Source of the DNA: a virus
Strand: one strand, 5' to 3'
DNA: 64,000 bases
Virus record (IMG/VR): IMGVR_UViG_3300027847_001705
Shown here one piece after another: positions 43,700 through 45,699 of the stretch. Made by a program: the position numbers and the translations under genes. The notes below the pieces were generated by a model, which worked only from the letters and a program-made list of their open reading frames with translations, had not been told where the DNA came from and searched no databases. Position 1 is the first letter of the stretch. Every line of letters begins with the position of its first letter.

Positions 43700-43945
43700 T
43701 TATACGATGTTAAATCTAGGATCTTCAGTTATATGATCTCCCTCTGCAAGACATGATTTGACCTGATACTTATCTCTAAAGATCTCCATCTTGTTAAAAG
43801 CATCATCAAAGCTTTCTGCCGTCAGATATAAAGGTGATACATATTCCATGGTATCCCAAGTACGCATCCATACCTGATACGTCTGATTTTTAGTCATGTG
43901 CTTTATTTCTTTGGTTGCTTTTGTATTTTTGATTGTGACTGCCAT
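43700..43945 (-). CDS. Early hypothetical protein
   Basis: First ORF after an early promoter. Confidence 0.55.
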   Translation of the reverse strand: MAVTIKNTKATKEIKHMTKNQTYQVWMRTWDTMEYVSPLYLTAESFDDAFNKMEIFRDKYQVKSCLAEGDHITEDPRFNIV

Positions 43946-43983: not shown

Positions 43984-44039
43984 TTTATTCTCTATATATA
44001 TTATACCATTTATAGCGCAACATGTCAACATATTTGATT
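43984..44039 (-). promoter_or_regulatory. Early sigma70 promoter, repeat copy 2
   Basis: Perfect TTGACA-17-TATAAT. Confidence 0.9.
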
Positions 44040-44192: not shown

Positions 44193-45050
44193 TTGGAAAG
44201 GAACAAACTGACTAGCTTAATTATACCCGCAGATTTTGACAATGCCGTTACCCGTCTTCGTAATTTTTTTCATTCCCGTGGTTTTCTCGAAGTTCACACC
44301 CAAAACAGATTATCCATATTAGCTGCTTGCGAAGATCCTACAACTGTCGCAACATATAATTATAATGACATCATATGGCCTTTACCCCAAACCGGTCAAA
44401 TGTGGTTGGAATACGAGCTATTAAATAATCCGGATTTAAAAGGTGTATTCTGTGTTTCAACATCTTATAGACAAGAACAGAATCCTGTCGAAGGCAGACA
44501 TGAAGTTATATTTCCCATGTTTGAGTTTGAAGCACCTGGTGACTTTCAGGACTTACTTAATATGGAAAGAGATTTAATTTACCACTTAGGTTTCATACCT
44601 CCTGATCGCGTTGCCGAACCATTTCCTGAAAAAAGTTATGGTATGTGGTGTCAGGAATTTGATTGTGAAGAATTAGATCATGAGCACGAACAAATGATAT
44701 CTGATTCTCATCCTTCCGGTGTTGGATTTATAACTCAATTTCCTTATCATACTTCCCCCTTTTGGAATATGAAAAAAGTAGGTGATCTTGCTAACAAATG
44801 TGATGTAATTATGGGTGGCATGGAAACTATCGGTTCCGCTGAAAGGTCTGCTGATCCGGAAGAGATGAGAGAACAGTTTCATACAATTTCCGATGGAGAA
44901 TATGCTGAATTATTATTTAAATTATTCGGCGAAGCGCGAGTAGAAAAAGAATTGAAAGAATTCTTAAGTCATAAATTTTTTCCAAGATATGGTGGTGGAA
45001 TAGGTCTTACCAGACTTATAAGTGCCCTGAATGTAAAATTCGAATTCTGA
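44193..45050 (+). CDS. Class IIb aaRS catalytic-domain-only protein (AsnRS/AspRS paralogue, archaeal-type asparagine synthetase-like)
   Basis: Motif 1 FFHSRGFLEV, PLPQTGQ, motif 2 YRQE...RH...F.MFEFE, motif 3 GGGIGLTRL; no N-terminal OB anticodon-binding domain. Confidence 0.85.
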   Translation: MERNKLTSLIIPADFDNAVTRLRNFFHSRGFLEVHTQNRLSILAACEDPTTVATYNYNDIIWPLPQTGQMWLEYELLNNPDLKGVFCVSTSYRQEQNPVEGRHEVIFPMFEFEAPGDFQDLLNMERDLIYHLGFIPPDRVAEPFPEKSYGMWCQEFDCEELDHEHEQMISDSHPSGVGFITQFPYHTSPFWNMKKVGDLANKCDVIMGGMETIGSAERSADPEEMREQFHTISDGEYAELLFKLFGEARVEKELKEFLSHKFFPRYGGGIGLTRLISALNVKFEF

Positions 45051-45068
45051 TATAATAATACGTGATAC

Positions 45069-45178
45069 TCTGGGGTGGCGAAACAGGAAGACGCGGTACG
45101 TTGTTAGCGTATTATCTTTGGTTTGATCGTATAATCTAGATCAAAGATGTGTTGGTTCGAACCCAACCCCCAGAGCCA
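45069..45178 (+). tRNA. tRNA-Asn(GUU) with a 38-nt variable region
   Basis: Acceptor TCTGGGG/CCCCAGA, G73, encoded CCA; D arm GCG/CGC; anticodon arm GTACG-TTGTTAG-CGTAT; T arm GTTGG-TTCGAAC-CCAAC. Confidence 0.85.
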
Positions 45179-45204
45179 ATTGTAAAAATATATTTATATC
45201 ATTT

Positions 45205-45699
45205 TTAAAAGCGAGAAACATATCGCGAAATGTGATGCACAAACGGAAGTAAGGCAATTGCCATAAAAGTATTTACTCCTGTATGTACAAGAGCTACCTG
45301 CCGCGTAATGCCCGTAGGTAATCCATCGCTCACTAACATTCCTGCTATCCATATAGTTCCTGTTGTTCCCACATTTGCACCTAATATAGCGGCGATTGCA
45401 GACGGTAAGGGTAATGAGCCAGAAGCAACAAGACCAATAACCGCAGTTGTAGTAAGTGATGAAGATTGCCAAAGAAGAGTACATACAATTGCTCCCGAGA
45501 ACATCCAATAAGGATTTCCTAGAAACCATTCAAGTTGTTCTAAATGGCTCATTGATTTCATTCCACCTGTGAACATTTTCAAGCCAATGTAAAATATGAC
45601 AAGACCCAGTAAGGTCTGAAAAACTGGATTATTAAATTCCATATAATTTCCTTTTTTATATTTCCACGAATCATAAAGTTTTCTATCTTTCTTTTTCAT
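45205..45699 (-). CDS. Na+/Pi cotransporter-family protein, single repeat
   Basis: QSSSLTT and GANVGTT motifs; hydrophobic; alternative start at 45642. Confidence 0.8.
   Translation of the reverse strand: MKKKDRKLYDSWKYKKGNYMEFNNPVFQTLLGLVIFYIGLKMFTGGMKSMSHLEQLEWFLGNPYWMFSGAIVCTLLWQSSSLTTTAVIGLVASGSLPLPSAIAAILGANVGTTGTIWIAGMLVSDGLPTGITRQVALVHTGVNTFMAIALLPFVHHISRYVSRF

Follow-up and report, generated by a model that had tools for sequence, protein, structure and literature searches.

A tRNA-Asn gene with a long variable arm beside a minimal AsnRS-like ligase gene in marine T4-like phages

To our knowledge, textbooks assign long variable arms to Leu, Ser, Tyr and Sec tRNAs only. A stretch of viral DNA from IMG/VR record IMGVR_UViG_3300027847_001705 (64,000 nucleotides, referred to here in its full length as the window) contains a 110-nt gene for a tRNA that combines such an arm with the Asn anticodon GUU. 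What kind of tRNA is this, and which enzyme would load it with an amino acid? The window comes from a marine T4-like myophage whose 105-kb record has 33.6% GC and is about 59% complete; its DNA is distantly similar to both the pelagiphage HTVC008M and cyanomyophages. The tRNA gene itself is real, conserved and physically coupled to the gene directly upstream, which encodes a protein resembling the catalytic core of asparaginyl-tRNA synthetase (AsnRS). This neighbouring ligase gene is the key to interpreting the tRNA. Judging from sequence, we think it on balance probable that an anticodon-blind, AsnRS-like phage ligase charges its own Leu-bodied tRNA-Asn, which would give the phage a source of Asn-tRNA independent of its host.

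An Asn anticodon on a type II tRNA body

A sequence-only reading of the window had described a tRNA with all canonical arms and an encoded CCA, a 3-bp D stem of the Leu/Ser/Tyr type, and a 14-bp variable stem with one bulge. The sequence agrees in each respect (Table 1), and U8 and G9 are present between the acceptor stem and the D arm. The minimum free energy (MFE) fold is a cloverleaf with a long additional hairpin (z = −2.8 versus shuffles). A covariance search, one of the checks proposed by that reading, gave a full-length match to the tRNA family RF00005 when Rfam was run locally (41.5 bits, E 1.6e-7, model positions 1–71; gathering score 29 bits), the alignment placing a 35-nt insertion in the variable region. 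ARAGORN, another of the proposed checks, missed the gene at default settings on the whole window and reported a tRNA-Tyr only. Rfam run on the whole window at gathering settings missed it as well; only the local Rfam search and a custom family covariance model, R1, detected the gene.

The variable region, longer than 10 nt and folded into a stem-loop, and the 3-bp D stem are those of a type II tRNA, and the 4-bp D stem and 4–5-nt variable loop of a type I body are absent. The isotype does not fit the type II class (Leu, Ser, Tyr in bacteria, or Sec), as the anticodon GUU specifies Asn. The identity set of bacterial tRNA-Asn comprises the GUU anticodon, G73 and U1-A72. All are found in the window tRNA, namely GUU and G73 (AsnRS) and U1-A72 (GatCAB route).

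An assembly artefact is contradicted by a 732-nt contig from an independent marine metagenome run of 2011, which covers 44738–45469 with zero differences. The ligase–tRNA stretch is also near-complete (at least 92% of sampled words) in about 14 marine metagenome runs from about 12 studies, and the window tRNA is neither an artefact nor a singleton. The related doubt, that the arm is not conserved in relatives, is answered by homologous tRNAs in many loci. An alignment of 52 distinct tRNA sequences of this family folds as a cloverleaf plus variable stem with 99.4% of cells paired. Compensatory changes occur in 21 of the 24 pairs, to which 0 of 500 shuffles and no slid register come close. They include changes at six of the seven acceptor-stem pairs, with U1-A72 retained in 52/52. 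The base of the variable-arm helix covaries too (98.3% of cells paired; compensatory changes in 4/4 modelled pairs). U1-A72, G73, U8, G9, G18G19, G34U35U36 and most of the T loop are among the invariant positions; the anticodon is GUU in all 52 relatives, and CCA is encoded in 36 of them. The "new tRNA architecture" suggested by the sequence-only reading thus holds in the sense of a conserved, covarying tRNA-Asn(GUU) family with a type II body. We found no paper describing a type II tRNA-Asn, or an AsnRS without an anticodon domain, in phages.

The closest likeness of this body is to tRNA-Leu. The D arm of phage tRNA-Leu is identical to that of the family at 16–18 of 20 positions, as against 11–13 of 20 for canonical tRNA-Asn, and the variable hairpin is set at the same junctions, with Leu-like junction nucleotides. 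R1 scores the tRNA-Leu genes of a 735-kb phage at 56–68 bits and misses the tRNA-Asn genes of that phage. In the T5-like phages T5, AKFV33 and SPC35 its top matches are tRNA-Ser genes, and the loci retrieved there contained no long-armed tRNA-Asn. The family differs from tRNA-Leu in its GUU anticodon, in having G73 rather than A73, which LeuRS requires, and in having U1-A72 rather than G1-C72. Its arm reaches at most 14–15 bp, compared with 4–5 bp in the recovered phage tRNA-Leu genes; arms of type II tRNA-Leu are typically 3–7 bp.

The record also contains a second tRNA-Asn(GUU), a canonical type I molecule of 76 nt with U1-A72, G73 and CCA (Rfam 67.8 bits), which R1 does not match even at E ≤ 10. 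Canonical tRNA-Asn (in this genome and in the Saccharibacteria genome G003) shares with the window tRNA the GUU anticodon, U1-A72, G73, a standard T arm and a 7-nt anticodon loop. They differ in the D stem, which is 4 bp (GCUC/GAGC) in the canonical form and 3 bp in the window tRNA, and in the variable region, a 5-nt loop in the former and 38 nt long in the latter; the D loop of the window tRNA measures 11 nt. On these sequence comparisons, the family is best described as a tRNA-Leu-type body that carries tRNA-Asn marks at both functional ends.

Across the family the variable region measures 5–39 nt, with stems of 0, 3–8, 10–11 and 14–15 bp. Arms of 13–39 nt are continuous in length, always helical and attached at the same junction. 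The window tRNA and those of loci L001 and L006 form the longest-armed extreme of this continuum; the 110–111-nt form is retained in L001 and L006, whose ligases are 83–88% identical to that of the window. Giant arms with 12-bp AT-rich stems, unrelated in sequence to the window arm, were also observed in L112 (2832–2941, 110 nt) and L147 (2851–2954, 104 nt). These two contigs are filed under Bacteroidetes and Legionellales metagenome-assembled genomes (MAGs) and look like phage DNA. Since the long arms of the window, L112 and L147 are unrelated, arm expansion occurred several times.

Neighbouring members of the ligase tree may be paired with very different arms (variable regions of 7 nt in L003 and 20 nt in L004; 7 nt in L016 and 20 nt in L017; 22 nt in L008 and 7 nt in L019). 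As near-identical ligases have partners with differing arms, the arm is not a required recognition element, and it is probably not read by the ligase. The long arm is best read as a tolerated, fast-evolving expansion and not as a strict identity element.

The ligase coding sequence is covered without differences by metatranscriptome contigs, and a 361-nt RNA-library contig from a related strain spans 44791–45151, from the coding sequence across the spacer and into the tRNA through its arm. This contig fits co-transcription of ligase and tRNA and an arm that is kept in the primary transcript. It also bears on the excisable insert considered in the sequence-only reading. The hairpin could be an intron-like element or a small palindromic mobile insert that is removed or that marks a degrading gene, the 110-nt form then being non-functional. 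Such an origin would suit an arm that is AT-rich, far longer than those of standard type II tRNAs, and unrelated in sequence between the lineages of the window, L112 and L147. However, the palindrome occurs only once in the 105-kb genome, evidence against a mobile insert, and the arm belongs to a 0–15-bp continuum of helices at the canonical junction, of which the 110–111-nt form is itself maintained in relatives. DNA and RNA-library contigs are collinear through the arm, unspliced, though such contigs could miss a mature spliced form. The tRNA introns that we know of in bacteria and phages are group I elements in the anticodon loop, which also counts against an insert. We regard this explanation as very improbable.

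The coupled ligase-like protein

Relatives of the ligase gene occur at no fewer than 593 IMG/VR loci (at least), and the protein collection holds more than 8000 ligase clusters at 90% identity. Eighty-three loci were examined, comprising 80 viral contigs, the phages P-SSM2 and P-SSM7, and the window. In 74 of these, the ligase gene is followed immediately by a homologous tRNA-Asn(GUU), at a median distance of 9 nt (range −18 to 226; 18 nt in the window); four of the nine loci without the tRNA end within about 220 nt of the ligase gene. Crude neighbour clustering sorts the flanking genes into about 44 families upstream and about 40 downstream, which occur in at least 49 combinations. Given such varied flanks, the ligase and tRNA genes move as one unit.

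The ligase gene is present in the cultured Prochlorococcus phages P-SSM2, P-SSM5 and P-SSM7, and the GenBank records of P-SSM2 and P-SSM7 label the module as "tRNA ligase" (T4-GC194) and "tRNA-Asn". GenBank thus names both genes and says no more about them. The module tRNA of P-SSM2 is the sole tRNA of its 252-kb genome (PMC3037559, Table 1). Sullivan et al. (2010) list the ligase without comment among sporadic host-like genes, and discuss neither the type II architecture nor the absent anticodon-binding domain (PMC3037559). A blastn search of an isolate-phage collection with an 86-nt relative of the tRNA gave no match.

The ligase is a class IIb synthetase core with only 17 residues before the core, compared with 135–186 in bacterial AsnRS, AspRS and LysRS (135–140 in AsnRS). 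Its AlphaFold (AF2) model has a pLDDT (predicted local distance difference test) of 94.5. The structural matches of this model are AsnRS (Z scores 27.4 and 26.9), archaeal-type AspRS (26.5), archaeal asparagine synthetase A (24.1) and GenX (23.6). Profile searches against the PDB rank the same folds alike, with E values of 1.5e-16 for AsnRS, 9e-15 for archaeal AspRS, 7.6e-8 for archaeal asparagine synthetase A (3p8t) and 1e-4 for GenX. All specific family models are far from their cut-offs: the AsnRS models TIGR00457 and NF003037 score 25–28 bits against 342–414 (TIGR00457: 25 against 342.6), the asparagine synthetase models NF005055 and NF005053 score 23 and 18 bits against 389 and 322, and the EpmA/GenX model TIGR00462 scores 17 bits against 287.

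Sequence alignment shows a pocket, PQTGQMWLE, that resembles SQSGQLYLE of AsnRS and lacks the Lys found in PQSPQLYKQ of AspRS. In motif 2 the residues are RH and E, like those of AsnRS, rather than the DRQ and D of AspRS; GSAER is as in AspRS and AsnRS, and not of the LysRS type xxxELN. Motif 2 (YRxE...GRH...FPMFEFE) is intact in 83/83 homologues, as is GSAER, and the strict motif 3 pattern GGGIGxTR is found in 68 of the 83. In a small tree, the ligase family forms a separate, long-branched clade that groups with AsnRS against AspRS plus LysRS (support 91/83), a placement subject to the usual caution over long branches. In three distant proteins of the family (P0179, P0247 and P0207), the Arg of motif 2, GRH and the Arg of motif 3 have all been lost, and these proteins are probably catalytically dead paralogues.

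The family extends to cellular genomes. A scan covering one genome per prokaryotic species found 414 ligase stretches, with identities of 54–74% among the 80 listed. Carriers are mostly Patescibacteria, Dependentiae and Midichloriaceae, complete chromosomes included, and NCBI names the proteins "amino acid--tRNA ligase-related protein". The long-armed tRNA adjoins the gene in only six marine MAG contigs, which probably represent phage DNA drawn in by binning. Five ligase-bearing cellular genomes have gatB and no asnS reaching the cut-off. Free Asn made by a synthetase would therefore lack a charging user there, and the absence of AsnRS mildly favours a charging function. Among 301 sampled Patescibacteria genomes, six have the ligase, 34 have asnS and none has both, although zero overlap is expected by chance about half the time.

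One ligase-bearing cellular genome has a normal tRNA-Asn. In another, the complete 721,362-bp Patescibacteria chromosome G004 (loci L175–L211; ligase at 446084–446917), no credible tRNA-Asn was found with ARAGORN allowing introns, a lowered threshold, a custom scan or Rfam, a split form with a larger intron being possible. ARAGORN and Rfam both give 36 contiguous tRNA genes in this chromosome, and the intron option of ARAGORN adds candidates for a tRNA-Arg with a 194-nt intron and a tRNA-Thr with a 314-nt intron. At about 326,035–326,100 in G004, the 3′ half of tRNA-Gln(CUG) is duplicated, in what looks like an attachment-site scar. In seven other Patescibacteria loci (L100, L109, L120, L131, L136, L140 and L144), a tRNA-Gln(UUG) lies 0.15–1.9 kb downstream of the ligase.

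These data also bear on a different function for the protein. It could be a tRNA-independent asparagine synthetase of the archaeal AS-AR type, with the tRNA charged by host enzymes (AsnRS, or a non-discriminating AspRS followed by GatCAB acting through U1-A72), and the two genes would then form an asparagine supply module. The size and domain content of the protein resemble those of archaeal asparagine synthetase A (285 versus about 294 aa), to which it is matched both in structure and by profile, and very different arms beside near-identical enzymes are expected if the tRNA is never bound. GUU and U1-A72 are, moreover, the elements read by host AspRS or AsnRS and GatCAB. Against this, AsnRS cores match better in structure and, by nine orders of magnitude, by profile; the pocket is AsnRS-like and without the Lys that AspRS uses for the aspartate side chain; and free Asn could not be charged in the five cellular carriers without canonical AsnRS. 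Tight coupling in at least 49 contexts (median gap 9 nt, the genes sometimes overlapping) would be unusual for genes that are merely useful together, and the Leu-like D arm and long variable arm would be expected to hinder GatCAB and class IIb enzymes with an anticodon domain. We judge an asparagine synthetase unlikely.

Within the window the ligase–tRNA cassette is among very few units on the plus strand. A perfect sigma-70 consensus promoter (TTGACA, 17 nt, TG-TATAAT) at 44000–44028 on the minus strand is directed away from the ligase, toward a minus-strand open reading frame (ORF) at 43700–43945. A 164-aa ORF on the minus strand (45205–45699) converges on the tRNA; it matches a single repeat of the Na+/Pi-cotransporter family PF02690 (E 2e-15) and is perhaps a fragment or a minimal version of an auxiliary gene for phosphate transport.

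Table 1. Positions of the ligase gene, the long-armed tRNA gene and its parts, and the canonical tRNA-Asn gene
Feature	Position	Strand	Basis or detail
Class IIb synthetase catalytic core, 285 aa, without anticodon-binding domain, AsnRS-like (T4-GC194)	44193-45050	+	PF00152, E 9.4e-18
tRNA-Asn(GUU) gene, type II-like, 110 nt including encoded CCA	45069-45178	+	Rfam RF00005 41.5 bits; family model R1 82.3 bits; MFE cloverleaf
Acceptor stem, 5′ strand, 7 bp, U1-A72	45069-45075	+	Pairs with 45168-45174
D arm, 3-bp stem GCG/CGC, 11-nt loop, tRNA-Leu-like	45078-45094	+	16-17 of 20 positions shared with phage tRNA-Leu, 11 of 20 with canonical tRNA-Asn
Anticodon arm, 5-bp stem, loop UUGUUAG	45096-45112	+	Anticodon GUU 45103-45105; U33 and A37 present in window copy
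Variable arm, 14 bp, one bulged U, loop CGUAUA	45114-45148	+	Inside 38-nt variable region 45113-45150
T arm, GUUGG / UUCGAAC (loop) / CCAAC	45151-45167	+	
Acceptor stem, 3′ strand, discriminator G73 (45175), encoded CCA (45176-45178)	45168-45178	+	
Canonical tRNA-Asn(GUU)	G000:C1:91907-91982, 178-253 nt past window right end	-	Rfam

Proposed charging of the tRNA by its neighbour

Charging by the adjacent ligase would proceed as follows. The tRNA body, with its 3-bp D stem, long D loop and variable arm, would be derived from a type II tRNA of the tRNA-Leu type, and the tRNA would probably be co-transcribed with the ligase gene 18 nt upstream. The ligase product would charge this tRNA, the amino acid would be Asn, and the charged tRNA would be used on the ribosome. 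Because the ligase has no anticodon-binding domain, the anticodon would not be readable in the canonical class IIb manner, and the acceptor end (U1-A72, G73 and CCA) would be recognised instead. The variable-loop side is the one from which class II enzymes approach tRNA. As the phage enzyme has no N-terminal domain on that side, it could accommodate the long arm, and the absence of an enzyme domain there would leave the arm free to drift between 0 and 15 bp while remaining helical. The arm may also hinder host enzymes that possess such a domain. The pair would supply Asn-tRNA for the abundant AAU and AAC codons (in this genome of 33.6% GC, 5.1% of codons are AAT), bypassing host AsnRS or a non-discriminating AspRS plus GatCAB.

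Several observations weigh against this mechanism. An archaeal paralogue of matching size makes asparagine without a tRNA, and the Z score of the ligase against it is only about 3 below that against AsnRS. The same genome has a canonical tRNA-Asn(GUU), and decoding capacity alone fails to explain the long-armed gene. In the ligase tree, some near-identical enzymes differ in whether their partner tRNA has a variable stem, and members of the ligase family lack a neighbouring tRNA in five viral loci, in the 735-kb phage and in hundreds of bacterial genomes, mostly Patescibacteria. The anticodon loop is unusual for a decoding tRNA, with U37 in 44 of the 52 relatives and a C or A in place of U33 in 12. 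In addition, the RNA-library contigs may stem from contaminating DNA, and mature ends are not shown by contigs.

Two of these points, the variable and atypical flanks of an invariant GUU and the presence of a second, canonical tRNA-Asn, would also suit a non-translational or defence role. The tRNA would then be a nuclease-resistant replacement or a decoy for host tRNA-Asn that anticodon nucleases attack, or the ligase would modify the tRNA or some other acceptor. The truncated synthetase paralogues GluQ-RS and EpmA have been recruited for non-canonical transfers, a precedent that counts for such a role. Phage tRNAs escape anticodon nucleases through changes in the anticodon loop, and the flanks in this family resemble these changes (PMC10264068). 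However, a nuclease-resistant tRNA would still be translational, and would overlap with charging by the ligase for decoding. The L-shape, the CCA end and the elements for EF-Tu and the ribosome are all conserved, the window copy has the canonical U33 and A37, the pocket is of the Asx type and not the Lys type of EpmA, and no defence or toxin gene is consistently linked across loci. The tRNA-mimic decoy put forward in the sequence-only reading is further disfavoured by the invariant GUU, U1-A72, G73, T loop and G18G19, the 3′ CCA, and the dedicated ligase-like neighbour. We consider a role of this kind quite unlikely.

Two further observations concern the anticodon loop. Position 37 is G in short-loop forms and A only in the window tRNA and one other; t6A37 is impossible with U37. 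The tRNA at L050 (3868–3966, plus strand) has the anticodon GUC in a loop CUGUCGA, its sisters L041 and L051 keep GUU, and the adjacent ligase pocket is unchanged and AsnRS-like. An anticodon-blind system may have switched its anticodon here, or the GUC may be a sequence variant confined to one contig.

It is tempting to take the proposed charging one step further. The ligase and tRNA could be a host-insulated pair, in which the enzyme reads the acceptor end only, the Leu-type body and arm repel host AspRS or AsnRS, GatCAB and perhaps anticodon nucleases, and the anticodon is free to change (compare the GUC of L050). This extension is speculative, and we think it somewhat unlikely. If true, the module would represent a new type of viral translation system with a wide distribution, and genetic-code engineering could take it up directly as an orthogonal pair.

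Charging by the ligase, even without insulation, would mean that a class IIb synthetase works without an anticodon-binding domain, and would provide a host-independent viral route to Asn-tRNA as well as a natural candidate for an orthogonal pair. It would also clarify the role of the unnamed ligase-related proteins of Patescibacteria and intracellular bacteria. The module sits in a virus group that ranks among the most abundant in the ocean and includes cultured Prochlorococcus phages, and the question is directly testable in culture using P-SSM2 and P-SSM7 with Prochlorococcus NATL strains.

Comparison with known systems

The module departs from two textbook rules. One limits long variable arms to the tRNAs for Leu, Ser, Tyr and Sec; the other has class IIb synthetases recognising the anticodon through an OB domain. 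The ligase shares with canonical AsnRS the class IIb core (Z score 27.4, root-mean-square deviation 2.2 Å over 250 residues), motifs 1–3, and the QxGQxxLE and RH...E...E pocket signature. In contrast to canonical AsnRS, with which it is 21–26% identical, it lacks the whole N-terminal OB anticodon-binding domain. In this last respect it resembles the archaeal AS-AR proteins (3p8t, 3reu and 1nnh; Z score 24.1), whose class IIb core of about 290 aa likewise stands alone, with no domain for anticodon binding. The ligase differs from these in a weaker profile match than to AsnRS (E 7.6e-8 versus 1.5e-16) and in failing the NCBIfam models for asparagine synthetase A, and we know of no linkage of an AS-AR gene to a tRNA gene.

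The modules of P-SSM2 and P-SSM7 are homologous two-gene units, with proteins 61–62% identical to that of the window and tRNAs of 85–86 nt; the window arm is three times as long. As a mode of recognition, the proposed reading of the acceptor end or body instead of the anticodon has its counterparts in the pairs SerRS–tRNA-Ser, AlaRS–tRNA-Ala and PylRS–tRNA-Pyl. SerRS recognises the long variable arm as part of its tRNA. The phage pair would differ from pairs of the SerRS type in that the arm is dispensable for its enzyme and in that this enzyme belongs to class IIb, the members of which, as far as we know, all read the anticodon through the OB domain.

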